64,000 nt of DNA from Rhodoferax sp. (GTDB lineage: Bacteria; Pseudomonadota; Gammaproteobacteria; Burkholderiales; Burkholderiaceae_C): assembly GCA_046348185.1 (NCBI GenBank), contig JAXMER010000015.1:13834-77833 (forward strand), written 5' to 3'. The translations under genes were made by a program, and so were the position numbers. This document shows, piece after piece, positions 4,005 to 39,212 of this stretch. A model generated the notes under the pieces. It was not told the DNA's origin. It was given only the letters and a program-made list of their open reading frames with translations, and searched no databases. Positions within the stretch are counted from its first letter, which is position 1. Each line of letters starts with the position of its first letter.

Positions 4005-4041
4005 GAGAGCACCTACCTTTCTTTGAAAGCAATTTTCCGCA

Positions 4042-4100
4042 GGGCCGCCCCAAGGAAAATTAGCCCCCTTGGGGGGCAGCGACCCGTGCAACGGTGGAGC
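4042..4100 (+). repeat. Type-2 GC-rich hairpin repeat, copy T2a (pilT-pilU intercistronic)
   Basis: GGGCCGCCCCAAGGAAAATTAGCCCCCTTGGGGGGCAGCGACCCGTGCAACGGTGGAGC. Contains the CCCCC-TT-GGGGG and CCCCAAGG/CCTTGGGG inverted repeats. Confidence 0.8.
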
Positions 4101-4112
4101 TTGGGGGTCATA

Positions 4113-5156: not shown

Positions 5157-5201
5157 GAAAGTCCCTTTGCAATGGTGCGGGTTTGGTACGCTTGGAACAT
5201 T

Positions 5202-5912
5202 ATGACCACGATTGCCGAGAATCTCCACTGCGTCCGTCAGCGGATCGCATCAGCCTGTGCCCAGGCACAACGTGCACCGTCGGCGGTGGCCTTGCTGGCG
5301 GTGTCCAAGACCTTTGATGCCGATGCCGTTTTGCAGGCCTATCAGGCCGGGCAGACGGCATTTGGGGAAAACTACATCCAGGAAGCGGTCGACAAGATCG
5401 CCCAGCTGCGCCAGCTGCCGCTGCAATGGCATTGCATCGGCCCGATCCAGAGCAACAAGACACGTTTGGTGGCGCAGCATTTCGACTGGGTGCATACCGT
5501 GGACCGCCTCAAGATCGCGCAGCGCCTGAGCGAGCAGCGCCCCACCGAGTTGCCTGCGCTGCAAGTTTGCATTCAGGTCAACATCGATGGCGGCCCCACC
5601 AAGTCCGGTGTGGCACCTGCACAGGCGCTGGAGTTGGCCCGGGCCGTCGCATCACTGCCGCGGTTGCGGTTGCGCGGGCTAATGTGCATCCCGGAGCCTG
5701 CTCCTGATTTCGTAGCGGCTTGTGCAGTATTTGCAGGGGCTAAAGCCCTATTTGATCAATGCAATCAGGCTGGACTGGAGCTGGATACCCTGTCCATGGG
5801 CATGAGCGACGACCTGGAGGCGGCCATCGCATCGGGCTCCACCCTGGTGCGGGTGGGTAGCGCCATCTTTGGCAAGCGCAGCTACGCGCCGACCTTGGCT
5901 GTCGACGCGTAG
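5202..5912 (+). CDS. yggS: YggS family pyridoxal-phosphate homeostasis protein
   Basis: MTTIAENLHCVRQRI...LLAVSKTF...LSMGMSDDLEAAIASGSTLVRVGSAIFG. Divergent from pilT, as is usual. Hosts type-1 copy I. Confidence 0.92.
   Translation: MTTIAENLHCVRQRIASACAQAQRAPSAVALLAVSKTFDADAVLQAYQAGQTAFGENYIQEAVDKIAQLRQLPLQWHCIGPIQSNKTRLVAQHFDWVHTVDRLKIAQRLSEQRPTELPALQVCIQVNIDGGPTKSGVAPAQALELARAVASLPRLRLRGLMCIPEPAPDFVAACAVFAGAKALFDQCNQAGLELDTLSMGMSDDLEAAIASGSTLVRVGSAIFGKRSYAPTLAVDA
5700..5742 (-). repeat. Type-1 43-nt repeat, copy I (inside yggS), diverged
   Basis: Reverse complement: TAGCCCCTG CAAATACTGCACAAGCC GCTACGAAATCAGGAGC. Read as APDFVAACAVFAGA. Confidence 0.7.
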
Positions 5913-5918
5913 GCCCGG

Positions 5919-6479
5919 TTACTTCTTGGGGATGCTGATTGGCTTGATGTTGCCGCAGTCGCCGCCCAGCCAGCGACCGGAACTCTGCATTTCCATCTTT
6001 TCGGCCTGACCGCGTACCGTCGAGGTGGTCTGCATCTTCACCGCATAGGACTCGGGGCTGTTGTAAGTGACCGTGCCTTCACCCGAACTGGGCGGTTGCG
6101 TGCAGACGAACGAGAATTTCATGGTGTTGCCGCTGCGCGCGCTGTTGGTGTGCGTGCAGTCGCCCTTGTGGGAGGCAACTTCGTTGCGGTCGATCATTTC
6201 CTGCGTCATGCAAATCTTGATCGCCATGCCCGAGCCGCCGCTGGGACTCATTTGCACGCCCTGGCGCGCCATCATGTCCTGCATCATCTTGCGTTGCTCC
6301 GGGGGCATACTTTCAATGGCCTTGCGTGCTTCGGCCATGGCATCGTTCATTTCCTTGGAGCCCTGCATCTGGGACGTGATTTCCCACAGGCCGGGTTTGA
6401 TGGATTGGGCCGATACCCCGGCACTGCAGGCCACGAGAGCCAGACTGGTCAAGGCGATTCTTGCGTAGTGCATGGTCAT
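5919..6479 (-). CDS. DUF3617-like secreted/lipoprotein
   Basis: Signal peptide (LALVACSAGVSAQ) followed by the KPGLWEITSQMQG motif typical of DUF3617. Confidence 0.7.
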   Translation of the reverse strand: MTMHYARIALTSLALVACSAGVSAQSIKPGLWEITSQMQGSKEMNDAMAEARKAIESMPPEQRKMMQDMMARQGVQMSPSGGSGMAIKICMTQEMIDRNEVASHKGDCTHTNSARSGNTMKFSFVCTQPPSSGEGTVTYNSPESYAVKMQTTSTVRGQAEKMEMQSSGRWLGGDCGNIKPISIPKK

Positions 6480-6576
6480 GGAAGTCCCCCGAAAAAAGGC
6501 GATTGTGGCATCCCCGAAACAGGGGCGCTACCCGTGTTGGCGCTTTGCAACGCTGTCTATAGAATGGTCGATCGCT

Positions 6577-7509
6577 ATGGATGCTGCGCCCACTTCCACC
6601 GATTCCCTGTCGCCGATCGCGGCACGGGTGGAAATTTCCATGGCGGTCCTGTTTGCCGATGTAGCGGGCAGCACCCGCCTGTACGAAGCGCTGGGCGATG
6701 CCCTGGCCAAGCGCCTGATCGACGAGTGCCTGGGCGTCATGCAGTCCGTGGTGCAACGCTATGGCGGGCGCGTGGTCAAGACCATTGGCGACGAGATCAT
6801 GGCCGTATTGCCCAGTGCCGACAACGCCTGCCTGGCGGCCACCGATATCCAGCACAAGATCCTGGCCTTGCCGGTGGTGGAGCACAGCAAGCGCGCCGTA
6901 CGCGTGGGGTTTCACTTCGGCCCGGTGATCGAAGAGGGCGGCGATGTATTTGGCGACACCGTCAATGTTGCTGCGCGCATGGCGGCCCTGGCCAAGGGCA
7001 TGCAGATCATCACCACCACGCAAACCGTGCAGGGCCTCTCGCCCATGCTGCAACTGTCCACGCGGGCCATTGCGGCACTGACCGTCAAAGGCAAGGGCGA
7101 TGACGTGCCCGTGAGCGAGGTGATCTGGCAAGGTGGTGAGGAACTGACCATGTCCACCGCCTCCATCTCCAACCAGACCCGCGCGGCCACGCTGCACCTG
7201 GAAGGGCAGGGCCGCAGCTGGAGCCTGGAGGTGGCACCGAGCAGCCTGCTGATGGGGCGCGATGCGCAGTGCGATGTGGTGGTGACCGACCGCAACGCCT
7301 CGCGCCAGCATGCCCGCATCGAGCGCCGACGCGACAAGTTCTTTCTGGTGGACCAAAGCACCAATGGCACCTACGTGGCGTTTGCCAACGAACCCGAGGT
7401 GATCTTGCGTCGCGAGGAACTAATGCTGCGCGGCAAGGGCCGCCTGGCCCTGGGCCAATCGGTGGAGAACGGCGCAGCAGATGTGCTGCACTTCACGGTG
7501 CGGGACTGA
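6577..7509 (+). CDS. Class III adenylate/guanylate cyclase with C-terminal FHA domain
   Basis: VLFADVAGSTRLYE, GDEIMAVL and GDTVNVAARMAALA (cyclase), then LLMGRDAQCDVVVTDRNASRQHARIERRRDKFFLVDQSTNGTYV (FHA). ATG 6577 chosen inside ORF 6472..7509. Confidence 0.88.
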   Translation: MDAAPTSTDSLSPIAARVEISMAVLFADVAGSTRLYEALGDALAKRLIDECLGVMQSVVQRYGGRVVKTIGDEIMAVLPSADNACLAATDIQHKILALPVVEHSKRAVRVGFHFGPVIEEGGDVFGDTVNVAARMAALAKGMQIITTTQTVQGLSPMLQLSTRAIAALTVKGKGDDVPVSEVIWQGGEELTMSTASISNQTRAATLHLEGQGRSWSLEVAPSSLLMGRDAQCDVVVTDRNASRQHARIERRRDKFFLVDQSTNGTYVAFANEPEVILRREELMLRGKGRLALGQSVENGAADVLHFTVRD

Positions 7510-7533
7510 GGCGCCCCACACCGCGGACCGGTT

Positions 7534-9954
7534 TCAGGTTGTGGGCCGCTGCGCCAGTTTGCCCCGTTCGCCCGCTGCCCCTTGCAAACCCGCCGGCGGC
7601 AGGCGGGCCCACTTACCCTGGGCGGCATCGGCATTGCAGGCGCTGGCAAAGGCCACCTGCACCGCATTGCCGGTGGCGCCGGCCAGGCTCAGGCAGTTCT
7701 GTCCCAGCTTGGCATTGAGCGGCTTGAGCACGCTGTCATTGAGTAAATCGGCGGCATTGCCCTCGGCCATGCGCAGCTGGTACGTGCCTGCTTCGGCGTC
7801 GGGCTGAGCGTCCAGTACCGCGCGCAGCGAACGCAGCTCGCGCAGCAGCCACTGGCCACTGGCAGCATCGGGCAGACCGGTGATTCGCAGCGCGACATTC
7901 TGGGCGCCGTAGGCAAAGTGTTCGAGGAAGAAGTTTTTGGAGAACTCATCGCCCACCAGCTTGCCGATCTCCATCAGGGCCTGGTCCTCCGTGGCCCAGC
8001 TCTTGCCGCTGGGCGTGACGGTGTTGAGGTACACCTCTTCGCCGCTGGCGCGGTCGGTGGCTTTCAGCGTCCAGGAGGTCAGGGCCGTCTTGGTGATGGT
8101 CAGGCCCGAGCTCGGCAGGCGCGCGGACAAGGGCTTGAGCTTGACTTCGCCATCGATCTGGAAGTCTGGCGCCTGGGCATTGGCAGCTGCGGCGGTATCG
8201 CCCTGCGCGGACCAGACCCGAAAGCCGAAGGACTTGATACGGTCCTTGAGCACGTTTTCAGCCACCATGGAGCGGTCTGGTGGAAAGGGTTGGGCACTGT
8301 CGGCATTGCGGATGCTGATGCGGATGGCCACCTTGGGGTCGCCATTGGCACGGATGAAGTCAATGCGCTCTTCCTTGGAGAGCTGGTTGAGGGACTTCTG
8401 CACGTCACGCACTTTCACCACGGCACGCGCTTCGGTTTGCACCAGGCCATCGGGTCCGGCGGAGGGCGCGCCCTCCTGGATCACGGTCTTGATGTACGCG
8501 CCGGGCTGCGCCAGCAGCTTGCGTTCCAGTACGGTGTAGTTCTTGGCGATGGAATCCTTGTCCACGTACAGGGCCACGGCTTTTTCCACCAGCTGGCGCA
8601 TGGCGTCGCTGCGCGACTCGGCTTGTGCGTCCTGGGCATTGGCGAAGCGCGCGTCTTTCGGGTTGGCCAAGCCTAGTGCGCTGATGACCAAGGTGCCGGG
8701 TTCGGGTGCGGGCTCGTTGGCGGCGATTGCCACGGGTGTAGGGGATGTCGTGGCCTGCGCAGCGGTGGCGTTGCTGGCCGCGGGTGCGGCCGGTGCAGTC
8801 GCACTGGAATCGGGTGCCTTGGAGCGACCGCCGTACCACAGGCCGGCGCCACCCAGCACGGCTACCGCAATGCCTGCAGCCATGGCTACGGCGGGAAACT
8901 TCTTCGGGCTCTGCGCTGCAGCTGCGGCTGCAGGCGCTGGTGATTGCGGTGCGCGTTGCGCGGCGCCCTGTGGCAAGGGGGCGGGTGTCGGTGCGGCACT
9001 GGCAGCGGGCTTGGGCGCCGGGGGCGCAGGGTTCACCTGGCTCACGGCGGTACGATTCGGATCGTCGGCGGGTGCAGCCGGTGCAGACAGCGCTTGAGCA
9101 AGGGCCTCGGAAAACTCGCGCGCGGTCTGGTAGCGCTCCTGCGGGTTCTTGGCCATGGCCTTCTTCACCACGGCGTCCAGTGCGGGCGGCAGGGCCACGT
9201 TCAGCATGGACGGGGCCAGTGGCTCCTCGTGCAGCACCTTGAACATGATGGTGGTCGAGTTGCCGGTAAAGGGCTTCTCGCCGGTGAGAAACTGGTACAG
9301 CACGACGCCGCACGAGAACAGGTCGCTGCGTGCATCCACGGGTTGCCCCATGAACTGCTCGGGCGACATGTAGGCCGGCGTGCCCAGCACGGTGCCTACC
9401 TGGGTCAGCTCGGATTTTTCGATGCGCGCAATCCCGAAGTCGGCCACCTTGACCCTGCCATCGGGCAGCACGATCAGGTTGGCGGGCTTGATGTCGCGGT
9501 GCACCACGCCGTGGCGGTGCGCGTGGTCCAGCGCATCCAGGATGTCGCCCATCAGGCGCTGCACATCGGGCAGGGCAAAGCGTTCGTTGGCTTCGAAGTA
9601 GTCGCGCAGCTCCTTGCCCTGCACGAACTCCATGGCAATGTAGGCAATGGGCTGGCGCGCTTGCATCGCCGCCTCGCCTGCGACCATGGTGTGGTCGTCG
9701 TCGGCCACCTCTTCGCCATAGTCGTACACCGCCACGATGCCGGGGTGGTTCAGGCGCCCGGCGGCCTGCGCCTCGCGTTTGAAGCGCGCCATCACCTGGC
9801 TGGCTTCCTCACCCTTGAGTTGCTGGGGCAAGATGGTCTTGATGGCGACGGTGCGCTCGATCAGCGGATCGAAGCCCTCATAGACCACCCCCATGGCGCC
9901 CTTGCCCAGTTCGCGACGGATGGAATATTTGCCTAAGTGCGTGATCGTTGCCAT
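7534..9954 (-). CDS. Hanks-type Ser/Thr protein kinase with Pro/Ala-rich linker, one TM helix and a ~420-aa periplasmic region
   Basis: GKGAMGVVYEG, HRDIKPANLIV, DFGIA and GTPAYMSPEQ. TM helix [22 protein letters not shown]. The C-terminal region resembles the two upstream secreted proteins. Confidence 0.92.
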   Translation of the reverse strand: MATITHLGKYSIRRELGKGAMGVVYEGFDPLIERTVAIKTILPQQLKGEEASQVMARFKREAQAAGRLNHPGIVAVYDYGEEVADDDHTMVAGEAAMQARQPIAYIAMEFVQGKELRDYFEANERFALPDVQRLMGDILDALDHAHRHGVVHRDIKPANLIVLPDGRVKVADFGIARIEKSELTQVGTVLGTPAYMSPEQFMGQPVDARSDLFSCGVVLYQFLTGEKPFTGNSTTIMFKVLHEEPLAPSMLNVALPPALDAVVKKAMAKNPQERYQTAREFSEALAQALSAPAAPADDPNRTAVSQVNPAPPAPKPAASAAPTPAPLPQGAAQRAPQSPAPAAAAAAQSPKKFPAVAMAAGIAVAVLGGAGLWYGGRSKAPDSSATAPAAPAASNATAAQATTSPTPVAIAANEPAPEPGTLVISALGLANPKDARFANAQDAQAESRSDAMRQLVEKAVALYVDKDSIAKNYTVLERKLLAQPGAYIKTVIQEGAPSAGPDGLVQTEARAVVKVRDVQKSLNQLSKEERIDFIRANGDPKVAIRISIRNADSAQPFPPDRSMVAENVLKDRIKSFGFRVWSAQGDTAAAANAQAPDFQIDGEVKLKPLSARLPSSGLTITKTALTSWTLKATDRASGEEVYLNTVTPSGKSWATEDQALMEIGKLVGDEFSKNFFLEHFAYGAQNVALRITGLPDAASGQWLLRELRSLRAVLDAQPDAEAGTYQLRMAEGNAADLLNDSVLKPLNAKLGQNCLSLAGATGNAVQVAFASACNADAAQGKWARLPPAGLQGAAGERGKLAQRPTT

Positions 9955-28040: not shown

Positions 28041-28385
28041 ATGCCATCCGCCTCTTCACCCCAACCCCAGCCACCCGGGCACTGGCCCGAAGTCGGCCAT
28101 GGCGTATGGACGCGTTGGTGGGGCTATCTGGTGCGCTGGCTGGCGTTTGGGCTGGTGGTGCACCTGTTCCAGCCAGTGGCCGAGGACGGCGGCGTGCGCT
28201 GGCTGGAAAAGATCCAGCAAGCCCTGATGGGGCTGGGCTTTGGCTTCGTCTGCGCAGTGGTGTTCACCGTGGCTGACAACAAGTTCAATGTTGCAAGGCA
28301 ATCATGGAAGACCTGGACGCTGATCGTGCTGACCTGGCTGTTGGTGAAGGTGGTGTTCGTCAGCGCGTTAGCGCTATGGGCGTGA
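28041..28385 (+). CDS. Small hypothetical membrane protein
   Basis: Three hydrophobic helices. No family recognised. Confidence 0.5.
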   Translation: MPSASSPQPQPPGHWPEVGHGVWTRWWGYLVRWLAFGLVVHLFQPVAEDGGVRWLEKIQQALMGLGFGFVCAVVFTVADNKFNVARQSWKTWTLIVLTWLLVKVVFVSALALWA

Positions 28386-28403
28386 GGGGATCAACCCCGT
28401 CCG

Positions 28404-28937
28404 TCAGGGCCGCCGGAATGCCACCGCCTGGCGCGACCAATAGCCCGCGGTCAGCGTATCCAGTCGCACATCGCCGCCTGTGGAGGGGGCATGCACAAAG
28501 CGCCCATCGCCCACGTAGATGCCGGCATGCGAAGTAACGCCGCCCAGCGTGAACACCACCAGATCGCCACTGCGTAAGGTGTCGCCGTCCACGGCCTGGC
28601 CCCAATCCGAGAGCTGTGCCACGGTGCGCGGCGCCAGCACACCAGCGCTGTTGCGGTAGACGTATCCGATCAGACCACTGCAATCAAACCCGGTGTCGGG
28701 CGTATTGCCGCCGCGCCGGTAGCGCGTGCCCACCAGGCTGATGGCGTGCAGCGTGACGTCGCGCGCCTGCTCGTCCGAGACGCGGCTGGCCATAGGGGTG
28801 GATGCATGTAGGGGTGCTTCGCTTCGCTTGGGCGCGCTGGAGCAGCCCGCCAGCAGCGCGACCGCCACCAGCGCCCAAGCCAGTGCGATGCGCGGGTGGC
28901 TGCGTGGGGGCAAAACGGATTCAGCGATGAAGGCCAT
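28404..28937 (-). CDS. NlpC/P60 (C40) family peptidoglycan peptidase lipoprotein
   Basis: Lipobox LLAGCSS. RYRRGGNTPDTGFDCSGLIGYVY and SHAGIYVGDGRFVHAPSTG. ATG 28937 chosen. Confidence 0.9.
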   Translation of the reverse strand: MAFIAESVLPPRSHPRIALAWALVAVALLAGCSSAPKRSEAPLHASTPMASRVSDEQARDVTLHAISLVGTRYRRGGNTPDTGFDCSGLIGYVYRNSAGVLAPRTVAQLSDWGQAVDGDTLRSGDLVVFTLGGVTSHAGIYVGDGRFVHAPSTGGDVRLDTLTAGYWSRQAVAFRRP

Positions 28938-29068
28938 GCCCGCATTGTGCCCGCCAGCGCCAAGGCCCCGCAACAAAACTTTACGGCGCAGTGTCGGCGT
29001 CCCGCTTGAACTTTGCGGCTGGGATCGCATCTACCTGCCGTGTTCACCTTTCCGACAAAGGACGGTTT

Positions 29069-29971
29069 ATGACATTGACACAGGGTTTGCAGCGCACACT
29101 GCGCGGCGTGGTTCTAGCGGCCTGCCTGGCCGGGGCGGGCGCTGCCATGGCGCAGCCCGAGCCGACCATGGCGCAAATCTATGCCACGGCCCAGGCCGGG
29201 CAACTGGAACAGGCGCAGGTGATGGTGCAGCAGGTGCTGGTGGCGCATCCCAACAGCGCCAAGGCCTTCTTTGTGCAGGCGGAGCTGTACGCCCGACAGG
29301 GCAATCTGGAGCGTGCCCGTGCCGCGTTGGCGCAAGCCGAGCGCATTGCGCCGGGGTTGCCGTTTGCCAAGGTCGAGGCGGTGCAAGCCTTGCGCAGCCA
29401 GCTGGCGGCTCATGCCGCTGCGGTGGCGCGTAGTCAGGCCGCAGCGCCGAACTATGCGCCAGCTGCCGCTGAGCACGGTAGCAGCATGGCGTCGTGGGGG
29501 CTGCCGGTTTTGTTGCTCGGTGGCGTGCTGGTGGTGGGCTATCTGGTATTTCGACGCAATCCCCCCGTGCAGCCGGTGGCTGCAGGCGGCGGCTATGGCG
29601 GCAGTGTGGGCGGTGGCCTGTCTGGCCCGCAGCAGTTTGGACAGCCTGCGCCTGCGGGTTACGGTCCGGCTGGATATGGACCCGGTGGCGTACCCGTGCA
29701 AGACAGCTTGGGCAGCCGCATCATGGGTGGCGTGGCGACCGGCCTGGCCGTGGGTGCAGGCGTGATGGCTGCGGAGGCGATTGGGCGCAAGTTCATGGGA
29801 TCGGGCGAACACGACCGCTCCAGCATAGGCTCGTCAGGCAGCTATGCCGACAACAGCTACCAACCCATCATCGACAGCAATGTCGACATGGGCGGTCAGA
29901 ACTTCGGCATTGCGGACGCGTCTTGGGACGACGGGGGCTCGGCTGGCGGCGGCTCCGACTGGGACAACTGA
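29069..29971 (+). CDS. TPR-containing membrane protein with Gly-rich C-terminal region
   Basis: Signal peptide, then a TPR-like segment (AKAFFVQAELYARQGNLERARAALAQAERIAP), a TM helix (GLPVLLLGGVLVVGYLVF) and a Gly/Tyr-rich tail. Confidence 0.7.
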   Translation: MTLTQGLQRTLRGVVLAACLAGAGAAMAQPEPTMAQIYATAQAGQLEQAQVMVQQVLVAHPNSAKAFFVQAELYARQGNLERARAALAQAERIAPGLPFAKVEAVQALRSQLAAHAAAVARSQAAAPNYAPAAAEHGSSMASWGLPVLLLGGVLVVGYLVFRRNPPVQPVAAGGGYGGSVGGGLSGPQQFGQPAPAGYGPAGYGPGGVPVQDSLGSRIMGGVATGLAVGAGVMAAEAIGRKFMGSGEHDRSSIGSSGSYADNSYQPIIDSNVDMGGQNFGIADASWDDGGSAGGGSDWDN

Positions 29972-31941: not shown

Positions 31942-33945
31942 TCAGGGCAGTTCTTCGTCGGCGTTGCTCAGCGGGGCATTGCGCGGCCCCACCTGGCCCA
32001 GGCGGGCTTTGAGCGACTGGGGCTGGCCGGTGATGAGCGCGGCGTAGCCGGTGGTGTTGGCCAGCACCTTCTTGACGTAGTCGCGGGTTTCGTTGAACGG
32101 GATGTTCTCGGCCCAGATGGCGGCCTCTAGCACAGGGCCGCCGCTCTGGCCGCGCCACAGGCGCGAGCGACCGGGTCCGGCGTTGTAGGCGGCGGCCGTC
32201 AGCGCCATGGAGCCATCAAAGCTGTCCAGTACCAGCTTGAGATAGCCGGTGCCGATGGCGATGTTGGTATCGCGGTCGGTGATCTGGTGCGGCTGGAATC
32301 CCGCCAGGCCAATCTTCTTGGCCGTCCATCTCGCGGTGGCTGGCATCACCTGCATCAAACCCGACGCTCCCACACCCGAGCGCGCATCCATGATGAAGCG
32401 GCTCTCCTGGCGGATCAGGCCATACACATACGCCGGGTCCAGGCCGATCTGGGTACAGCGTGCCACCACGGCAGCCTTGAACGGCAGGGGAAAACGTTGC
32501 TCCATGTCGACAAAGGACTTCGTGCGTTCGCTGGTGTTGATGCAGCGATCCCACACCTCGTTCTGGCACGCCAAATCGGCCGCAGCCAACAGGGCGCGGT
32601 CATCCATGCCCCCTTTGGCGTGCAGATTCGTGGTGTAGTTCCATTCGCGCACGCCCTCTGCGCGCAAACCGATGCGGATGGCATACAGCGCGCGTTGCAA
32701 GCCGGGGTTGGTGGCGGCGGCCTCCTTCTCGGCCGCATTGGGCGCCAAGGGTTTGGGTGGAACGGTTATGCGCTGGCCCAGCTCTTCCAGGGCCAGCTGT
32801 TCGTAGAAGCCGCGTACGCTGGCGATGCTTTCCAGCAGTTGCAGTGCCTGGGTACGCAGCCCCTCGCTGCTGGGCTGCAGCAACAGGGCGCGTGCGCGCC
32901 AGTAGACCCAGGCGGGGTCGTTGCGCTGCGAATCGCCCATGGCGCCAATTGCGCTGAGTACCTGCGACCAACGCCCCGCGCGCAGGGCCGCGCGGGCCTG
33001 CCAAGCCAGGTGCTCTTCGGGCAGGTAGGTGTTCTGCGCCCGGGCAAAGTAGTCCGGTGCCTCGGGCAGCAGCTTCTGGGCGGCCCGTTTGCCGATCACG
33101 CCCCATACCCAGCTGCGTTCCTCCTGCGTGAGCTGGGTCTTCCAGCGCAGCTTGTCCAGTTCTTTCGCGGCACCAGCGGGGTCGAGGTAGGCCTGGCGGA
33201 TCAGCGCCAGCACCACCAGCTCGCGTGTCTTGGACTGCAAGGCGGTGAGCTTGTCGCCCAGGAACTGGGTGGGATGCAGGTAGACCGCGTTGACCGCTTT
33301 CACCGAGGCCGGGCTGACAATGCCCACTGCCTGCGTGACCACTTTGAGCCGGTCGTTCTCCATACCCATGCGGGCACGCTGCCACACCATCAGGCTGGAC
33401 GTGGTGTGGTCTCTCACCAGTTGCTCGGCAGCGGCGGCACAGCCTTCGTCGGCTTCCTTGACGGGAAGCCAGGTGTCCTTGACCTGGGCGGTGTTGTCCT
33501 GGCCACTGGCCAAATGTTCCGCCAGCAAGGCGTAGCAGCGAACGGAGCGGTCGTCGCCCATGCGGTAGCGGGGGTATTCGCGGTTGAAGGCGCTCCAGTC
33601 GCGGTTGCGGCCCAGCTGCAGCAGCCATTCGGCACGCAGGCGGTCTTCCTGGTAAGTGCCGCTGTATCGGCTCAAGAAGTCCTGGATGTCGGTCGCGCTG
33701 GCTTCGTCCAGCCGGGCGGACAAGGCCCAGTACGCTGCCCAGGGTTCGAGCATATGGCCGCGTGCCTGCGGGAGCAGGGCTGCAAGTTGGCGGCGGTCGC
33801 GCTGCTTGTAGGCCTGGGCCATGTCCAGAAAAACCGCGTCGGCGCGGGCAAGATCGGAGGCGCTAGGGCGGGCCGCCTGGGCCAGGGGCGCGGTGCTGGT
33901 CAACCAAACGCCAGCAAGCAATGTCAGAATCGCAGAAAAACGCAT
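31942..33945 (-). CDS. slt: Soluble lytic murein transglycosylase (Slt70-like)
   Basis: Signal peptide, long superhelical N-terminal region, catalytic region IRQESRFIMDARSGVGASGLMQVMPATA...AAYNAGPGR. ATG 33945 chosen. Confidence 0.9.
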   Translation of the reverse strand: MRFSAILTLLAGVWLTSTAPLAQAARPSASDLARADAVFLDMAQAYKQRDRRQLAALLPQARGHMLEPWAAYWALSARLDEASATDIQDFLSRYSGTYQEDRLRAEWLLQLGRNRDWSAFNREYPRYRMGDDRSVRCYALLAEHLASGQDNTAQVKDTWLPVKEADEGCAAAAEQLVRDHTTSSLMVWQRARMGMENDRLKVVTQAVGIVSPASVKAVNAVYLHPTQFLGDKLTALQSKTRELVVLALIRQAYLDPAGAAKELDKLRWKTQLTQEERSWVWGVIGKRAAQKLLPEAPDYFARAQNTYLPEEHLAWQARAALRAGRWSQVLSAIGAMGDSQRNDPAWVYWRARALLLQPSSEGLRTQALQLLESIASVRGFYEQLALEELGQRITVPPKPLAPNAAEKEAAATNPGLQRALYAIRIGLRAEGVREWNYTTNLHAKGGMDDRALLAAADLACQNEVWDRCINTSERTKSFVDMEQRFPLPFKAAVVARCTQIGLDPAYVYGLIRQESRFIMDARSGVGASGLMQVMPATARWTAKKIGLAGFQPHQITDRDTNIAIGTGYLKLVLDSFDGSMALTAAAYNAGPGRSRLWRGQSGGPVLEAAIWAENIPFNETRDYVKKVLANTTGYAALITGQPQSLKARLGQVGPRNAPLSNADEELP

Positions 33946-33954
33946 GTGGAGATT

Positions 33955-34557
33955 ATGGACACATCCGACCCTTCCAAAGCCGCTGCCAAGAAGGCACTGC
34001 GCAAAAAGCTGCTGGAGCAGCGTTTGCACCTACCCGACCGCCTGGCTCAGGCCGACGCCTTGCAACAGGTCATGCGCATCTGGCTGGTCGGTCGCCCCGA
34101 CACGGTCATTGGTGCCTACTGGCCTATCAAGGGCGAATTCGATCCCCTGCCGGCCCTGCACCGCTGGAAGGAGGATGGCGAGCTGCTGGACCAGCCCCAG
34201 CTGCGGCGCATCGGCTTGCCGGTGGTAGACAAGGCTCACAAGACGATGACTTTCCATGCCTGGTACCCCGGCTGCCCCATGGAGGATGACGCCTACGGTA
34301 TTCCCAAGCCCAAGGACACCGAACTGCTGCACCCCACGCTGCTGTTTGCGCCCTGCGTGGGCTATGGCCCCGGCGGCTACCGGCTGGGCTATGGCGGGGG
34401 CTTTTACGACCGCATGCTGGCGGCACTCAACCCGAAGCCGTTTGTCGTCGGGCTGGGGTTCGGATCGGGTTTTGTCGATGACCTGGAGCCCGAGCCGCAT
34501 GACCAGCCGCTGGATGCCATTCTCAACAATCACGGCGTGGTCTGGCCTATCGGTTGA
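33955..34557 (+). CDS. 5-formyltetrahydrofolate cyclo-ligase
   Basis: This is the C-terminal 200 aa of the 756-aa track ORF: KKALRKKLLEQR...GYGPGGYRLGYGGGFYDRMLA. The rest of that ORF is antisense to slt. Confidence 0.85.
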   Translation: MDTSDPSKAAAKKALRKKLLEQRLHLPDRLAQADALQQVMRIWLVGRPDTVIGAYWPIKGEFDPLPALHRWKEDGELLDQPQLRRIGLPVVDKAHKTMTFHAWYPGCPMEDDAYGIPKPKDTELLHPTLLFAPCVGYGPGGYRLGYGGGFYDRMLAALNPKPFVVGLGFGSGFVDDLEPEPHDQPLDAILNNHGVVWPIG

Positions 34558-34564
34558 GCGCGCC

Positions 34565-35032
34565 ATGACACCCACCGAATTCGCACAGTTCAAGTACCAG
34601 CACACGGATGCGGCCGTGCGCAGTGTGGCGCGGCTGTGGTTCGTGGGCATCAGCTTGGCGTTGGGCTTGATCCTGCTGTCCATGCGCAGCGTGCCCTTGC
34701 CACTGGCATTGTTTGCCATGGCGGTTCCGGCCGTGGCCTGGTTTTCCGCCAGCCGCCATCTGCTGCTGGGGCCACGCTACCTGCTGTGCGGCCGGACCAT
34801 CGTCTACTACGCCAACGTCAAGCGCCTGACCCTGTCGCGCGCTACCGGCACCCTGCGCGTGCAGTCCAACAGCGGGCAGGACTTTGTGCTGGAGCGCGAC
34901 AAGTTTCCGACCGGTGCGCGCAAGGCCGACAAAATCAAGAAAAACAAGGCCGCCAAGTTCGACAAGGTGGCCGACAAGATCATCGACAAGGTACGCAAGG
35001 CCACCACCAGCGCAGACCTGATCGGCGTGTGA
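34565..35032 (+). CDS. Small membrane protein: two TM helices plus a basic, bPH-like C-terminal domain
   Basis: ATG 34565 inside ORF 34256..35032. TM helices LWFVGISLALGLILL and LALFAMAVPAVAWF. Its stop overlaps the radical SAM start (TGATG). Confidence 0.6.
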   Translation: MTPTEFAQFKYQHTDAAVRSVARLWFVGISLALGLILLSMRSVPLPLALFAMAVPAVAWFSASRHLLLGPRYLLCGRTIVYYANVKRLTLSRATGTLRVQSNSGQDFVLERDKFPTGARKADKIKKNKAAKFDKVADKIIDKVRKATTSADLIGV

Positions 35033-36840
35033 TGAAGTCTGTGATGGATCGCGCCATCCACCTGCTGTACGTGCCCACGCTGTGCTGCAACCTCAGTTGC
35101 AGTTACTGCTACCTGGGCAAGCAGACCACCGAAGCCGCTCTCAAGCTGGACGCCCAACGCGCCGTGCCGACGCTGCGCCACACGCTCGATGCACTCAAAG
35201 CCGCGGGCGTGCTGGCCTTCAATGTGTCGTTGCATGGCGGCGAGGTGACCACGCTGCCGCCCCCCGTGCTGGACGCACTGTTCACGATGATCCGCGCCCA
35301 CTACCTGGAGCACTTCGACGCGCACAATGCACTGGGCCACAAGAAGTCCGCGCCACACATCAAGACCAACCTGTTCAAGTTTGCGCCGCTCTACGAATTG
35401 TTCGACCGGCACAAGGTGTCGATCAGCGCCAGCATCGATTTGCCCTTGTCCTTGCATGCGCGCCACCGCACCACGCGCGGCGGTACCGACTGGCTGCCCC
35501 GCACGCTGGACAACATCCGCCTGCTGGCACGCTACCCGCACGCCAAGAAGATCTCGGCCACGCTTAGCAGTGAACACCTGGCCGACATTCCTGCCTTGGT
35601 GCACGACATCTGGTACCTGCACCGCGAGCTGGGTTTCGACATGAACCAGTTCAACCTCATGTTCGCCTTTGGCTCCGAGCTGAACCGCGCCGCCAAGGGC
35701 GAGGCCGTGCTCACGCCCTGCACGCCCGCCCAACAGCAGGCGCTGTACGACGCGTTGACCGCCGAGTTCATGGGCACCGAACTGGAAGAAGGTCTCAAAC
35801 GCAACTGGTTTGACGAATTCAAGCCCAGCTACTGCACCAATGCACCCAATTGCGGTGAGCGCTTTTATCTGCTGCAAAGCGATGGCGCTGTGTACTCCTG
35901 CGTGCGCGGCCAGGGCATTGAGGCCTTTCGCTACGGCAATGTGTTTGACGACCCTATCCTGGACATTCTTGACAACGGCGCGCGCAAGATCCGCGCCATC
36001 CACCAGGCCCAAGGCTTTGATGCCCACTGCCAGGGTTGCAACCATCTGAGCATCTGCAACACCGGCTGCGCCGTGGTCAAGTACCAGAACCAGAGTGGCA
36101 AGTCTTACACCTGTGGCCTGCAGAAAACCATCTACCAGGACAACCCGCTTTCCTACCCGGTTGACAGCCCTACCGAACAGCGCGAGTACGCCCTGCACTA
36201 CCAGCAGACCACGCACCCCAGCTTGGTGTTTGCACAGCCGCCCGCTGCGCTAACCGAGCCGCAATTCGTGCTGCCCAATGACATCGCCGAGCCCAAGAAC
36301 ACGTTGGCGGCCATCATCGCAGCCGATACGGTGCTGCAAACCCTGTTCAGCGACAGCGCCTTTGTGCTGGATTTTCGCGGCGAGCTGCTGCCCCTGGACT
36401 CCCAATTGCTGAAGACACGTCGCACCCAGCACACCCTGGTGGCCGGTGACCCGCTGGTGTTGCACCTGCGCCGCGACGTGCTGCAGGCCAACTGCCTTGA
36501 AGCCATCCGCAACACGCTGTACCTGCAGCTGCTGCGCGACACACCCGTGGTCTACGGCGACGAGCAGCGTACCAAGCAGGAACACATCTTCACCTACCAG
36601 CTCTACGCCAATTGCCTGCAGCCCAGCGCGCGGCTGGGCGAGGACTTCCTGCAGTGCGATCTGACGGATTTGCTGGCGTTGCACCGCGCGCATTTTCGGC
36701 GTGGCGTGCTCAACAACTTGTTCGTGACCACGCTGTATCTGCGCGAGTACCACTACGGTAAGCAAAAGGCCAACGCCTTCTACCATGTGCAAACAGCCAA
36801 CCTGCCGTTTCAGAATTTCGAATTCCACTACCTGCCCTGA
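35032..36840 (+). CDS. Radical SAM / SPASM-domain enzyme with an unassigned ~190-aa C-terminal extension
   Basis: CNLSCSYC (CxxxCxxC), the GGE motif in SLHGGEVT, and a canonical SPASM cluster CQGCNHLSICNTGC (Cx2Cx5Cx3C). ATG 35032 chosen inside ORF 34636..36840. Confidence 0.88.
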   Translation: MKSVMDRAIHLLYVPTLCCNLSCSYCYLGKQTTEAALKLDAQRAVPTLRHTLDALKAAGVLAFNVSLHGGEVTTLPPPVLDALFTMIRAHYLEHFDAHNALGHKKSAPHIKTNLFKFAPLYELFDRHKVSISASIDLPLSLHARHRTTRGGTDWLPRTLDNIRLLARYPHAKKISATLSSEHLADIPALVHDIWYLHRELGFDMNQFNLMFAFGSELNRAAKGEAVLTPCTPAQQQALYDALTAEFMGTELEEGLKRNWFDEFKPSYCTNAPNCGERFYLLQSDGAVYSCVRGQGIEAFRYGNVFDDPILDILDNGARKIRAIHQAQGFDAHCQGCNHLSICNTGCAVVKYQNQSGKSYTCGLQKTIYQDNPLSYPVDSPTEQREYALHYQQTTHPSLVFAQPPAALTEPQFVLPNDIAEPKNTLAAIIAADTVLQTLFSDSAFVLDFRGELLPLDSQLLKTRRTQHTLVAGDPLVLHLRRDVLQANCLEAIRNTLYLQLLRDTPVVYGDEQRTKQEHIFTYQLYANCLQPSARLGEDFLQCDLTDLLALHRAHFRRGVLNNLFVTTLYLREYHYGKQKANAFYHVQTANLPFQNFEFHYLP

Positions 36841-36851
36841 GAGTGCCCACC

Positions 36852-37289
36852 ATGCCAACCCCAGACCTGCAACGCACCGCCTACACCGTGGAATGCTTCT
36901 TGAACGCCCTGCGTCTGGAAGACGGTCCGAGCCGCACCGAAATTGAAGAAGCGCTGGTGCGCTGGCTGATGGACGGCAAGCGCGGGAAGGACGACCACTT
37001 GCTCTACCAGGATCAGACCATCTCCTGCTATAGCCGCCAACGTGTGGTGCAAAGCATGCCGGTTCCTATGGCGCGGCAAAAGCAGACCATCTGGTGCAAT
37101 GCCGACAAACTGTCCTCCATTGACGGCGCGGCGTTCAGCAGCAGCGGCAAGCTCGTCATGCTGGGTACGGCCGGGCTGCTGCTGGGCATGCCTGGGCTGG
37201 TTGCCGCACAGCAAGACCTCAAGGAAAAAAAGCGCAACAGCAATAACAATAACAACAATAACAATAACAACAATAACAACAACGGCTGA
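36852..37289 (+). CDS. Hypothetical tail-anchored protein ending in a 14-residue poly-Asn tract
   Basis: Soluble N-terminal part, hydrophobic LVMLGTAGLLLGMPGLVAA, basic KEKKR, then S-N14-G and stop. Start ATG 36852 or GTG 36843. Its stop overlaps the DTW gene start (TGATG). Confidence 0.6.
   Translation: MPTPDLQRTAYTVECFLNALRLEDGPSRTEIEEALVRWLMDGKRGKDDHLLYQDQTISCYSRQRVVQSMPVPMARQKQTIWCNADKLSSIDGAAFSSSGKLVMLGTAGLLLGMPGLVAAQQDLKEKKRNSNNNNNNNNNNNNNNG
37242..37283 (+). repeat. AAY trinucleotide microsatellite encoding 14 consecutive Asn
   Basis: AAT AAC AAT AAC AAC AAT AAC AAT AAC AAC AAT AAC AAC AAC, directly before GGC TGA. Extremely A/T-rich for this genome. Confidence 0.95.
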
Positions 37290-38077
37290 TGCGCGATTCC
37301 GCCGTTGAACCATTCCCGCCTTGGGGCGTCGCACACGCCGTATCCCGTCTGCGAACGCAGCGTCTGGCGCGTAGCGCCAAGCCCTTTCTGGCCCGTGGTG
37401 GTCCCCGCGGCGAACGCTGCCCAGGCTGCCGCTTGGTTCCCAGTCACTGCATCTGCGCCCTGCGCACATGCCTGCCCACCCATGCAGGCGTGTGCCTGCT
37501 GATGGCCGACATCGAACCGCTCAAGCCCAGCAACACGGGCTGGCTGATTGCTGACACGGTTCAGGACACCTTTGCGTTTGGCTGGGCGCGCACGGAGGTC
37601 GATCCGGCCTTGCTGGCCCTGCTGACCGACCCGCACTGGCAGCCCTATGTGGTGTTTCCGGGGGAGTTTGTGGCGAGCGAGCGGGTCGTGACGCAGCTAC
37701 CGGTCGCTACCCCCGAGAGTCCAGCCGCCAGGCGACCGCTTTTTGTGCTGCTGGATGCAACTTGGCCGGAGGCGCGCAAGATGTTTCGCAAAAGCCCCTA
37801 CCTGGATCGCTTTCCAGTATTGAGCCTGCAAAGCGAGCAAATCTCGCGCTACCGGCTGCGCCGCTCCCGGCGCGACGATCACTTCTGCACCAGCGAAGTG
37901 GCTGCCCTGTGCCTGGAATTGGCTGGCGATTCGCTGGCGGCGCAGACGCTGGACGCCTATCTGGACGTATTCACCCACCACTACCTGCAGGCCAAACACC
38001 AGCTGCCACCGGACCTGGATAGCCCTGCACATGTGCGTATTCAAGCACTGCGATCCGGGGTGGCCAGTGGGCTATGA
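37289..38077 (+). CDS. DTW-domain protein (tRNA-uridine aminocarboxypropyltransferase TapT/TuaA family)
   Basis: N-terminal Cys cluster RCPGCRLVPSHCICA, KPSNTG, and the DxTW motif in FVLLDATWPEARKMF. Confidence 0.8.
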   Translation: MRDSAVEPFPPWGVAHAVSRLRTQRLARSAKPFLARGGPRGERCPGCRLVPSHCICALRTCLPTHAGVCLLMADIEPLKPSNTGWLIADTVQDTFAFGWARTEVDPALLALLTDPHWQPYVVFPGEFVASERVVTQLPVATPESPAARRPLFVLLDATWPEARKMFRKSPYLDRFPVLSLQSEQISRYRLRRSRRDDHFCTSEVAALCLELAGDSLAAQTLDAYLDVFTHHYLQAKHQLPPDLDSPAHVRIQALRSGVASGL

Positions 38078-38135
38078 CCAGGCTGGACGTACAGAGGTCT
38101 AGAGAGGAAGTCTCCATCAGTAGGGATGCAGCGAG

Positions 38136-39014
38136 CTAGCACCTTCCCTGAAGCGCCGCCATCCCGCGCCCCGATGAGATACGGCGGTGAAACATGGCAA
38201 CCGACGCGATCGCGAGCACTGCAAGAGACACCACCGAGCCTTCAAGGCCGTAGGCTCCACCGGTCAACCAGTCGGGGCCACCCAGTTGGCCAAGGAAAAG
38301 GCCTTCTTTGACCTCATGGCCCGACACAGCGATCGACCAGATCGTCCCGAGCGTGTAGTTCCATCCGATATGGATGCCGATACTCAGCCAGATACGCCCA
38401 GTGCTCATGTAGGCGGCTGTCAATAGGATGCTGGCGACAACGGTGATAAAGATGGAAAGCGATGTGGACGAATCTCCGGGCAAGTGCGCGAGCCCGAACA
38501 ATACGGATGACACAAGCAAAGCCCACCGTTCACCCCAGGCTTGCGCGGCGATTCGAAATAGGATTGCTCGAAACAGCAACTCTTCAAAGGTACCAACCAG
38601 GACCATCAGGCCAAAGGGTTCGATCAGCGCGAGGTCGAAGGCATTCACGCGCTGCAGGTGGTATGCACCGCACGCCGCCAGCACGGCCATCACCGCGCTG
38701 ACCAACATGAAGCCCAAACCCAGGCCAGCACCGAGTTCACTTACGGCGGACCGCGTGGCCACTTCGGTGGCAACGCGATGTTCGACGCGTTGTATGTAGA
38801 GCCGGTAGGAGTAGAAAGCCAGCAACGCAGATACGAGTTCCGGCCAGACTGGTCGCCATGCTTTGGGTACCCAAGAATGAAAGACTGCTTCCGGCAGAAA
38901 CGCGCCGGTGCTAAGCACGAGGGCAGCCAGCAGGATGCGTACTACCGGCATGCGCATGGCGCGTTTTTTCCAGGGCGTTTGTGCTGCTTGTGCAGCATCG
39001 GTAACGATGGTCAC
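38136..39014 (-). CDS. CPBP family intramembrane glutamic endopeptidase (CAAX protease-like)
   Basis: Multi-TM protein with motifs FEELLFRAILF (EExxxR), LFGLAHL (FxxxH) and IHIGWN (HxxxN). Confidence 0.88.
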   Translation of the reverse strand: MTIVTDAAQAAQTPWKKRAMRMPVVRILLAALVLSTGAFLPEAVFHSWVPKAWRPVWPELVSALLAFYSYRLYIQRVEHRVATEVATRSAVSELGAGLGLGFMLVSAVMAVLAACGAYHLQRVNAFDLALIEPFGLMVLVGTFEELLFRAILFRIAAQAWGERWALLVSSVLFGLAHLPGDSSTSLSIFITVVASILLTAAYMSTGRIWLSIGIHIGWNYTLGTIWSIAVSGHEVKEGLFLGQLGGPDWLTGGAYGLEGSVVSLAVLAIASVAMFHRRISSGRGMAALQGRC

Positions 39015-39212
39015 AATGTTTTCCTTTTTTTAGCTTGCGACGCCTTTACGGGTGCGGTCACCGTTCGACCATCCAGTGAGTTTCAACTTTTCACAGGTAA
39101 CAGTGTCCCGTGCTCTTGGTGTTTCCCAACATGTGGAATTCCCTGATAACTCGGGTTGCCCAATGTCTGCATGCGATGGTGCGTCGCTACCTCCATTCGG
39201 GCCTGCGCAGGA

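Follow-up and report, generated by a model that had tools for sequence, protein, structure and literature searches.

Organization of the locus

The window, i.e. the whole stretch of 64,000 nucleotides that was analysed (Rhodoferax sp., contig JAXMER010000015.1), carries four co-oriented genes at positions 34565-38077 and a convergent gene downstream. The features of the locus are as follows.

34565-35032, plus strand: gene 1, membrane protein of 155 aa whose N-terminal part has two hydrophobic helices
35032-36840, plus strand: gene 2, 602-aa radical SAM/SPASM enzyme, identified by cluster motifs, SPASM model and phrog_1802
35086-35109, plus strand: CX3CX2C radical SAM cluster motif of gene 2 (C19, C23, C26), invariant in alignment A1
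35833-36114, plus strand: SPASM region of gene 2 with eight invariant Cys in the alignment (C268, C274, C290, C333, C336, C342, C346, C361), aligning to the auxiliary-cluster region of anSME (4k36)
36184-36837, plus strand: family-specific C-terminal domain of gene 2 (residues 385-602), no Pfam match, beta-rich in the AlphaFold2 model
36852-37289, plus strand: gene 3, 145-aa Asn-tailed partner in which residues 1-110 form a folded alpha/beta N-domain and the tail is disordered
37236-37286, plus strand: C-terminal tail of gene 3, N-S-N14-G (...KKRNS-N14-G), the feature common to partners of every clade
37289-38077, plus strand: gene 4, 262-aa DTW-domain protein (Pfam DTW, E=2.4e-54)
38136-39014, minus strand: CPBP/Rce1-like protease gene, downstream of and convergent to the cluster

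This gene anatomy was observed directly and agrees with the initial annotation in the position and orientation of all four genes, in the TGATG overlaps at 35030-35034 and 37287-37291, and in the 11-nt gap at 36841-36851 between genes 2 and 3. The start of gene 3 is the ATG at 36852, as backed by the alignment of homologues. A promoter and terminator scan of 33800-39200 gave no signal exceeding shuffled expectation. The CPBP protease was considered as a system component and rejected, being confined to the window locus.

Gene 1 further contains the conserved domain GPRYLxCG...ERDKFPTGARK and, at its C-terminus, a helix rich in Lys; it has no Pfam, NCBIfam or PHROG match. Its homologues lie directly upstream of the radical SAM gene in 8/8 other betaproteobacterial, gammaproteobacterial (Maricurvus) and Archangium loci; it is a clade-specific membrane accessory, limited to proteobacterial and myxobacterial loci. 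A membrane accessory common to all clades was rejected, as hhalign comparison of gene 1 with the neighbours in Bacillota, Thiomargarita/Beggiatoa and phages yielded probabilities of at most 1.6%.

The radical SAM/SPASM enzyme

In gene 2, a linker joins an anSME-like catalytic core (approximately residues 1-375) to a C-terminal beta-sandwich domain; the protein matches phrog_1802 over its full length. The CxxxCxxC, GGE and SPASM Cx2Cx5Cx3C motifs reported earlier for this enzyme were all confirmed: besides C19, C23 and C26, the SAM-binding motif H68-G69-(G)-E71 (HGGE, residues 68-71) is invariant in alignment A1, and the SPASM cysteines are spaced as C333x2C336x5C342x3C346, with G285 also invariant. 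The SPASM model TIGR04085 scores 41.9 bits (cut-off 27), and the match to Pfam Radical_SAM is weak (19.7 bits, under the cut-off of 29.5). Judged by their number, the eight invariant SPASM cysteines would provide enough ligands for two auxiliary [4Fe-4S] clusters in full. Since cluster ligation takes up all eight invariant cysteines that lie beyond the CX3CX2C motif, there is no obvious hydrogen-donor Cys for an epimerase. The proposed assignment to the peptide- or protein-modifying class is borne out, the enzyme being of the three-cluster radical SAM/SPASM type.

The earlier proposal had been made conditional on the enzyme lying outside the characterised radical SAM families; no such family was found to contain it, and the best NCBIfam model gives 67 bits against a cut-off of 300. 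With the anaerobic sulfatase maturase model TIGR03942, gene 2 scores 65.7 bits against 349.45, and at the annotated loci no sulfatase adjoins the cassette. None of the models for DynA, DarE/W, GrrM/OscB, AmcB, YhhB, XyeB, FxsB, PapB, HxsB, QhpD, MftC, CbpB and TIGR04083 reaches its curated cut-off; scores with named RiPP radical SAM maturases do not exceed 67 bits for gene 2 or 87 bits for members from Bacillota and phages, for cut-offs of 265-650.

The C-terminal domain had been described as an unassigned region of about 190 aa. It is indeed unassigned and spans about 215 aa here, with no Pfam match and no informative family in NCBIfam or PHROG. AlphaFold2 models it as a beta-rich sandwich (pLDDT 84), for which Foldseek found nothing in the PDB below E=1e-3, only a generic beta-sandwich likeness with a query-normalised TM-score of at most 0.29. 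The architecture of about 580-620 aa and the motifs YGDExRxKQEH and NAFYHIQxxNLPF are found in gene 2 and in all full-length members aligned, and the invariant, largely polar residues of the domain are N494, Y508, G509, K515, H518, T567, H574, N581, Y584, H585, Q587, N590 and P592. Together with the Ser-polyAsn-tailed partner, this layout marks a proposed new enzyme family, of which gene 2 is the defining member. The domain is a putative binding module for the Asn tail.

The Asn-tailed partner

The model of gene 3 has no match below E=1e-3 in the PDB or BFVD (Foldseek), and its sequence has no informative family in Pfam, NCBIfam or PHROG. The C-terminal transmembrane anchor formerly assigned to it (KLVMLGTAGLLLGMPG) had to be abandoned: the segment is weakly hydrophobic and AlphaFold2 places it confidently in the globular domain. 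Conservation of this part is undetectable in the Bacillota partners.

Partners were defined by a C-terminal end of S/T/C-(Asn)>=4 followed by 0-2 residues, as is found in gene 3, and across loci the signature is Ser-(Asn)4-15-Gly/Arg. Among 85 unique tails the median run is 11 Asn, 89% of the runs are uninterrupted, Ser precedes the run in 73 and Gly follows it in 72. Ser, Cys or Thr precedes the run in 77/85; two partners (P0436 and P0460) are without Ser, Thr or Cys in the five residues upstream. The residue after the run varies with clade: proteobacterial tails have Gly there, most Bacillota tails Arg, and those of Campylobacter phages Tyr. AAC and AAT codons are interleaved within the run, in a pattern that varies among orthologues. 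The Asn tail is under protein-level selection; its conservation is a direct observation.

Comparison of the N-domains gave an hhalign probability of 95.6% between the beta- and gamma-type and of 0.7% between the beta-type and the Bacillota type. Since the N-domains are unrelated between clades and the tail alone is in common, the tail is the probable site of recognition and modification.

Co-occurrence of the enzyme and the tail

The window and every one of the 19 other bacterial loci whose sequence extends past the radical SAM gene have exactly one ORF ending in at least four Asn, 2-40 nt after that gene; at one incomplete locus, the distance is 652 nt. The pair is found in Beta- and Gammaproteobacteria, in an Archangium (myxobacterial) MAG and in gut Bacillota. 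With the phage loci and the window included, an Asn-tailed gene is present at 28 of the 30 loci compared, in decayed form at one of them (L020). The exceptions are L014, where the contig ends, and the phage locus L085, where the enzyme is present and no Asn run occurs in any frame within 6 kb. No peptidase, exporter or extra tailoring enzyme was found to be conserved with the pair.

The suggestion that the 145-aa protein is a substrate or partner of the enzyme is backed by this near-perfect, directly observed co-occurrence across phyla, and co-occurrence is the one line of evidence by which the tail is taken as a putative substrate of gene 2. No NCBIfam model, solved-structure relative or paper was found for the pairing of a radical SAM enzyme with an Asn tail, and literature searches on radical SAM/SPASM enzymes with poly-Asn, Asn-rich or tail-fibre targets returned nothing relevant; the pairing appears to be undescribed.

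Phage versions

In Campylobacter and Helicobacter prophages and in uncultured phages, the Asn-tailed gene lies just upstream of the radical SAM gene and encodes a tail fibre or tail-module protein. The upstream genes of three prophage or phage versions and of Campylobacter phage CAM-P21 end in SSNNNNY, SCNNNNGG, SSNNNNNNRG or STNNNNY, i.e. S/T/C-N4-6. Structural tail fibres (316 and 368 aa) and a 435-aa tail-module protein are among these phage partners; the Helicobacter partner is identified as a tail fibre by its matches to Pfam Phage_tail_fib (E=1.3e-38) and to tail-fibre PHROGs, and the Asn-tailed gene of CAM-P21 is annotated as one.

Related Campylobacter and Helicobacter phage fibres, which served as negative controls, have the N-terminal collar in common with these partners and end in other C-termini without an Asn tail. 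Of these control phages, at least the Campylobacter one gave no match to the radical SAM gene. CAM-P21 is the only phage in the isolated-phage database with a member of the enzyme family, and no other Campylobacter phage record matched the family; the radical SAM genes carried by Campylobacter phages CP220 and CPt10 (PMC2853527) seem to belong to another set. The phage-encoded enzyme probably matures the fibre tip.

Gene 4 and alternative interpretations

The identification of gene 4 as a DTW-domain protein stands. Pfam DTW (PF03942) matches at 184.5 bits (cut-off 33.7) over 194/195 profile positions, the match to the tRNA-uridine aminocarboxypropyltransferase structure 9kyt has E=4.7e-53, and the motif LLDATW (D-A-T-W) and an N-terminal CxxC...CxC are present. 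Gene 4 is predicted from its sequence to be an ordinary TapT-type tRNA-uridine aminocarboxypropyltransferase, i.e. a housekeeping acp3U gene, and compared with TapT/YfiP and DTWD1/2 nothing notably differs except its position against gene 3.

The initial annotation had tentatively joined the radical SAM enzyme and the DTW protein in one RNA- or protein-modification module of four genes acting on a common substrate, by analogy with TYW1/TYW2, and had named neighbourhood analysis as a test of this link. The co-orientation of the genes, the TGATG overlap of genes 3 and 4 and the recurrence of the arrangement in contigs of the same species are in its favour. Nevertheless, a DTW gene is absent from all 24 other radical SAM loci (approximately 6 kb searched where the contig allowed), including relatives whose enzyme is 87% and 90% identical; in the reverse direction, among 48 DTW orthologue loci with sufficient upstream sequence, the cassette lies near the gene at one, with a minus-strand GGDEF gene in between. 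These direct observations, and the close match of gene 4 to the solved stand-alone TapT, make a single module scarcely credible: the four genes are not conserved together as one system, the TYW1/TYW2 analogy falls with the DTW link, and the operon gives no ground for a radical SAM-TapT pathway, which removes a false lead. Gene 4 is a chance neighbour, placed against gene 3 by a lineage-specific rearrangement. It overlaps the stop codon of gene 3, and therefore co-expression of the cassette with TapT is possible in this genome; gene 4 is probably co-transcribed with the cassette here yet functionally unrelated. We consider it likely that the locus is a composite, in which genes 1-3 form a mobile cassette with the radical SAM enzyme and the Ser-polyAsn-tailed partner as its universal core, the tail is the probable target of the enzyme, and gene 4 has no functional part.

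Two other readings keep the pair together and assign the tail another role. The tail might be a docking tag or scaffold and the real target might lie elsewhere: in a different residue of the carrier, in a second protein, or in a small molecule that is assembled on the C-terminus and then released, as with pearlins or mycofactocin. In favour of this are the disordered, homopolymeric nature of the tail, the clade-dependent residue behind the run (Gly, Arg or Tyr) and the extra enzyme domain, which could serve purely for binding; however, the carriers have only the tail in common, so that any common modification site would lie in or beside it, and the lack of a conserved peptidase, exporter or further tailoring enzyme also counts against this reading, which we judge unlikely. 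Still less probable is a classical RiPP, in which the N-domain of gene 3 would be a leader, the Asn-rich core would be cleaved and exported, and the CPBP/Rce1-like gene would serve processing or immunity. Most radical SAM/SPASM enzymes of the clan mature RiPPs, and the CPBP gene is convergent to the cluster in the window. Against this, the CPBP gene occurs at 0/24 other loci, no transporter or protease is conserved, the supposed leader is a well folded 110-aa domain in the AlphaFold2 model, and the phage partners include the tail-fibre and tail-module proteins of 316-435 aa described above.

Proposed modification and comparison with known systems

Under the composite reading, we infer both the substrate role of the tail and the following chemistry. 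The gene 2 enzyme would bind the disordered Ser-polyAsn tail, probably via its C-terminal domain, and a 5'-deoxyadenosyl radical would then take hydrogen from a tail residue. Since neither a protease nor an exporter is conserved alongside the pair, the carrier protein would retain the modification. The likeliest products would be an intramolecular cross-link (O/S-to-carbon or carbon-carbon) or an oxidation at the Ser, Cys or Thr before the Asn run, with epimerisation of Asn ranked as less likely. In anSME, the third auxiliary-cluster Cys is followed by an Asp, which we take to be the catalytic base; in the gene 2 family, V, H or P stands there and an invariant Arg comes next, which speaks against an oxidation of the strictly anSME-like kind.

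Among solved and curated enzymes, anSME (PDB 4k36/4k37; TIGR03942) is the nearest relative, with a profile match of E=2.7e-19 over residues 10-365, although family members score 66-91 bits with TIGR03942, far under its cut-off of 349. Both are three-cluster radical SAM/SPASM enzymes, anSME acting on a protein Ser or Cys and the present family on a putative target. Unlike anSME, the family has the additional C-terminal domain of about 215 aa and lacks a sulfatase or C/S-x-P/A-x-R motif. The maturases HxsB (His-Xaa-Ser), GrrM/OscB, the CXXX-repeat enzyme, PapB, DynA/DarE and QhpD are likewise radical SAM/SPASM enzymes beside a ribosomal target with a short repeat, and their HMM matches to the family are weak yet significant (44-87 bits), far under cut-off. 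In contrast to these, the candidate target here is a homopolymeric run of Asn with which a folded protein or a tail fibre ends at its C-terminus; the enzyme has the C-terminal beta-sandwich and no N-terminal RRE/PqqD-like domain, and is without a partner radical SAM enzyme, protease or exporter.

In the proteusin system of polytheonamide, the PoyD epimerase and the PoyC C-methyltransferase act on Asn-rich cores, which is a radical SAM precedent for the modification of many Asn per peptide. It differs from the present system in the enzyme family and in that no conserved Cys is free as a hydrogen donor here; moreover, neither a nitrile-hydratase-type leader nor a B12-binding domain was matched by the proteins of the locus, and genes for them were not seen in the annotated related loci.

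Radical SAM/SPASM maturases are a main source of new peptide chemistry, and new enzyme-substrate pairings have tended up to now to bring new bond types. As a tentative proposal, somewhat short of an even chance, the pair may carry out an undescribed radical modification of poly-Asn or of the Ser-Asn junction (for example, serial cross-linking or epimerisation giving a rigid, protease-resistant tail) on the receptor-binding tips of phage fibres and on small carriers with membrane partners in at least three bacterial phyla. If true, a virion structural protein would for the first time be seen to undergo radical SAM maturation, and poly-Asn cores would define a new class of ribosomal product. That Campylobacter and Helicobacter phages have the enzyme gene within their tail-fibre module suggests that virion proteins may be matured by radical chemistry, which bears on host range and phage engineering. 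The candidate substrate is very simple (Ser and 4-15 Asn with a free C-terminus), so that the chemistry is directly testable. Gut Bacillota of humans and animals are rich in the enzyme family, with 2,176 clusters at E<1e-20, and Betaproteobacteria from freshwater and wastewater commonly have it too.

Gene organization around the cassette

The sequence of the window, which has a high GC content of 63%, matches a contig of assembly GCA_041904845.1. The four gene positions proposed in the initial annotation were confirmed on the window sequence, as were the 11-nt gap and both TGATG overlaps (35030-35034 and 37287-37291). Genes 1-3 are referred to below as the cassette. A promoter and terminator scan gave no signal above chance.

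Genes and features of the cassette and its flanks in the window
31942-34557, Slt lytic transglycosylase and 5-formyltetrahydrofolate cyclo-ligase pair, immediately upstream of the cassette
34565-35032, + strand, gene 1, membrane protein, 155 aa
35032-36840, + strand, gene 2, radical SAM (rSAM)/SPASM enzyme, 602 aa
36852-37289, + strand, gene 3, Asn-tailed protein, 145 aa, C-terminus KKRNS-N14-G
37236-37286, + strand, tail of gene 3, AAC and AAT irregularly mixed
37289-38077, + strand, gene 4, DTW-domain protein, 262 aa
38136-39014, - strand, CPBP/Rce1-like intramembrane protease, convergent with the DTW gene and 58 nt from it

A 756-aa ORF at 32287-34557 (+) is a high-GC artefact; the real gene is its last ~200 codons (the cyclo-ligase), and the remainder overlaps the minus-strand Slt gene. 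In Propionivibrio, the Slt/cyclo-ligase pair (locus L001, 1-1221) lies ~6 kb upstream of the cassette, and the cassette flanks differ in the three other relatives looked at (L004, L005 and L088).

Twenty-nine further loci with a member of the gene 2 family were compared with the window: exact-protein look-ups supplied three, scanning GTDB species representatives 23 and IMG/VR viral contigs three; the Campylobacter phage CAM-P21 was added separately. The CPBP gene is kept with the cassette in no other locus.

The DTW gene is not part of the system

The initial annotation had suggested that all four genes could form one RNA- or protein-modification module, a reading to be given up if neighbourhood analysis showed that the genes are not conserved together. 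Gene 4 encodes a full-length DTW domain (E=2.4e-54) and matches a solved tRNA-uridine aminocarboxypropyltransferase (E=4.7e-53). When gene 4 was compared by phmmer with all ORFs of the window locus and of 24 related rSAM loci, the sole match was in the window; relatives with 87% and 90% identical rSAM proteins retain genes 1-3 and lack the DTW gene. In the reverse direction, 80 DTW orthologues (71-83% identical) were collected, 48 of which had at least 1.5 kb of upstream sequence, and the rSAM and Asn-tail genes were found upstream in only one of these 48 loci (L117), where a minus-strand GGDEF gene stands between the Asn-tail gene and the DTW gene (L117 1780-4774). Owing to the absence of DTW from 24/24 other rSAM loci, the outcome of the reverse test and the aminocarboxypropyltransferase match, the four-gene module is refuted, and the neighbourhood analysis removes the rSAM-DTW link as well. 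Gene 4 is a housekeeping TapT, and a recent rearrangement brought it next to gene 3; the window and L117 have different versions of its first ~14 codons, which is consistent with such a history. Loss of the GGDEF gene from the L117 arrangement would yield the overlap found in the window, and in L088 a minus-strand GGDEF gene also follows the cassette immediately.

Gene 2 defines a compact rSAM/SPASM family

Gene 2 is an rSAM/SPASM enzyme of the protein- and peptide-modifying clan. The motifs noticed at first reading are confirmed (C19x3C23x2C26, HGGE at 68-71 and C333x2C336x5C342x3C346), and the protein passes the curated SPASM model TIGR04085 with 41.9 bits (cut-off 27). It falls short of every named family; TIGR04083, anSME, DynA and GrrM come closest, with 64-67 bits versus cut-offs of 300-450. 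With the family profile, the closest solved relative is anSME (4k36/4k37; E=2.7e-19, residues 10-365). The family alignment contains eight invariant Cys beyond the CX3CX2C motif; thus, two fully ligated auxiliary clusters are possible. Residues ~385-602 have no Pfam match, and two motifs in this region, YGDExRxKQEH and NAFYHIQxxNLPF, contain invariant polar residues. The AlphaFold2 model of the region is a beta-rich domain (pLDDT 84) with no significant neighbour in the PDB.

The full-length architecture defines a compact family, with about eight full-length representatives of 50%-identity clusters and many clusters at 90% identity (1,681 and 2,176 hits). The nearest homologues are from Rhodoferax and Ca. 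Aalborgicola, and gene 2 matches phrog_1802 ('radical SAM domain-containing protein') over its full length. Gut metagenomes are very rich in family members (2,176 clusters).

An Asn-tailed protein accompanies the enzyme in bacteria

We searched both strands for ORFs of at least 40 aa with a run of at least four Asn within the last 30 residues. The window and all 19 of the 19 other bacterial loci with downstream sequence have one sole such ORF each, located 2-40 nt 3' of the rSAM gene, or 652 nt in the incomplete locus L024. This pairing spans genomes from 70% GC (an Archangium MAG, Rhodocyclaceae) to 22% GC (gut Bacilli MAGs), with tails such as RNS-N14-G in the window, QS-N15-G in L007, NT-N12-G in Maricurvus, SSS-N15-R in L022 and SSS-N10-G in L028. 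In L020 (Clostridium sp. CAG:465, 4200-6300), the rSAM gene is split into two ORFs and the partner gene has an in-frame stop right before SNNNNNNNNNNNNNR; either the locus is decaying or the AAT repeat is misassembled, or there is possibly programmed read-through.

A search with gene 3 returned 91 homologues, every one labelled hypothetical or unnamed, and the complete ones terminate in S-N(n)-G. Across 85 unique tails from all clades, the run holds 4-15 Asn (median 11) and is pure Asn in 89% of cases; it is preceded by Ser in 73, Cys in two and Thr in two, and followed by Gly in 72 and Arg in six. AAC and AAT are interleaved within the tails in patterns that differ between orthologues (the window, L001, L004, L005, L007, L008 and L025), and therefore Asn has been conserved through synonymous change. 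In high-GC genomes the tails over-use AAT compared with the remaining parts of the genes; in one 70% GC genome the rSAM gene has 21 AAC and no AAT, whereas the tail has 11 AAC and four AAT. This codon mixing looks like selection that keeps Asn while avoiding a slippery pure repeat, and the tail, as the element shared by the carriers, is under protein-level selection.

Outside the tail, the carriers are unrelated. The betaproteobacterial type of N-domain is homologous to that of Maricurvus, Thiomargarita and Beggiatoa (hhalign 95.6%) and has no detectable homology to the Bacillota type (hhalign 0.7%). AlphaFold2 predicts a confident alpha/beta domain for residues 1-110 of gene 3 (pLDDT >90), followed by a disordered tail, and this domain has no similar structure in the PDB or BFVD. 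The C-terminal transmembrane anchor suggested previously finds no support, as the hydrophobic stretch sits inside the modelled folded domain.

Accessory genes are clade-specific

Homologues of gene 1 lie 5' of the rSAM gene in 8/8 other betaproteobacterial, Maricurvus and Archangium loci. The Bacillota loci examined (gut MAGs; L015, L017, L018, L020, L021, L022 and L028) have a four-gene cassette in which the rSAM and Asn-tailed genes are preceded by a Zn-ribbon/multi-TM/BspA-type LRR protein and followed by a ~340-aa protein with two Zn-ribbons and TM segments. Thiomargarita and Beggiatoa have another, different membrane protein downstream. None of these membrane neighbours is homologous to gene 1, and the rSAM/Asn-tail pair has no conserved protease, exporter or second tailoring enzyme across the loci compared.

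Phage loci place the enzyme in tail modules

Family members also occur within the tail module of Campylobacter and Helicobacter prophages and of uncultured phages, after a tail-fibre or small protein ending in S/T/C-N4-6. Unlike in the bacterial loci, the Asn-tailed gene is upstream of the rSAM gene, with a phrog_10241 protein between the two where tested.

Coordinates of phage-type loci, and the carriers that phage-type loci encode
L023, 4034-7737, phage-type locus
L026, 4419-7743, phage-type locus
L086/L087, 5244-7725, phage-type loci
L089 (phage CAM-P21, MW462221.2), 5250-8758, annotated tail fibre, terminus GSTNNNNY, rSAM gene at 28053-29810 of MW462221.2
C. jejuni 414 prophage, 435-aa carrier, terminus GSSNNNNY
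Helicobacter MAG prophage, 316-aa tail fibre, terminus SCNNNNGG
Two IMG/VR phage contigs (same locus), 93-aa carrier, terminus SSNNNNNNRG

Tail-fibre or tail-module proteins serve as the carriers in phages. The Helicobacter fibre matches Pfam Phage_tail_fib (E=1.3e-38) and tail-fibre PHROGs and comes after baseplate genes; in this prophage, a holin gene follows the module. Campylobacter phage PC10 and a Helicobacter pullorum prophage serve as negative controls, with the same fibre N-terminal collar and different C-termini (...FMELR and ...FIRYS); apart from CAM-P21, no Campylobacter phage record, PC10 included, has an rSAM match. In one phage contig with a family enzyme (L085; IMGVR_UViG_3300010935_000101, 3364-7821), all frames lack an Asn run within 6 kb. 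The protein encoded upstream of this enzyme has 172 aa and a Cys-rich C-terminus (ALCASCSGCPCSYSFPAC), and the L085 branch may have a different substrate.

The enzyme is thus positionally coupled, across phyla and phages, to proteins that share just a C-terminal Ser/Thr/Cys-(Asn)n tail. The suggestion that the Asn-tailed protein is the substrate or partner of the enzyme is strongly supported by this comparison, and it extends to a cross-phylum, phage-associated system.

Relation to known systems and proposed reaction

Systems in which the gene for an rSAM/SPASM maturase lies next to that for its ribosomal target are known. What appears to be undescribed is the enzyme family with its C-terminal domain, the putative substrate motif, a homopolymeric Asn run at a free C-terminus, and the placement of this family in phage tail-fibre modules. 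Neither the enzyme nor any of the partners tested is covered by a model in NCBIfam release 20, and the full-text literature searched, with most subscription journals outside its coverage, yielded nothing relevant to the pairing.

We propose that the Asn tail would serve as both recognition element and modification site. The extra beta-sandwich domain would bind the tail, standing in for the RRE domain that is common in RiPP maturases and for which no match was found in gene 2, and the modified product would remain on the carrier protein. A heteroatom-to-carbon cross-link would be in keeping with the Ser, Cys or Thr preference at position -1, and sactionine, ranthionine and rotapeptide-type ether bonds offer precedents. 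The same preference would suit a side-chain oxidation of the anSME type, but the third auxiliary Cys of anSME is followed by Asp, the catalytic base, whereas the gene 2 family has V/H/P followed by an invariant Arg at this place. Epimerisation is the less attractive option, since none of the invariant Cys is left over as an H-donor.
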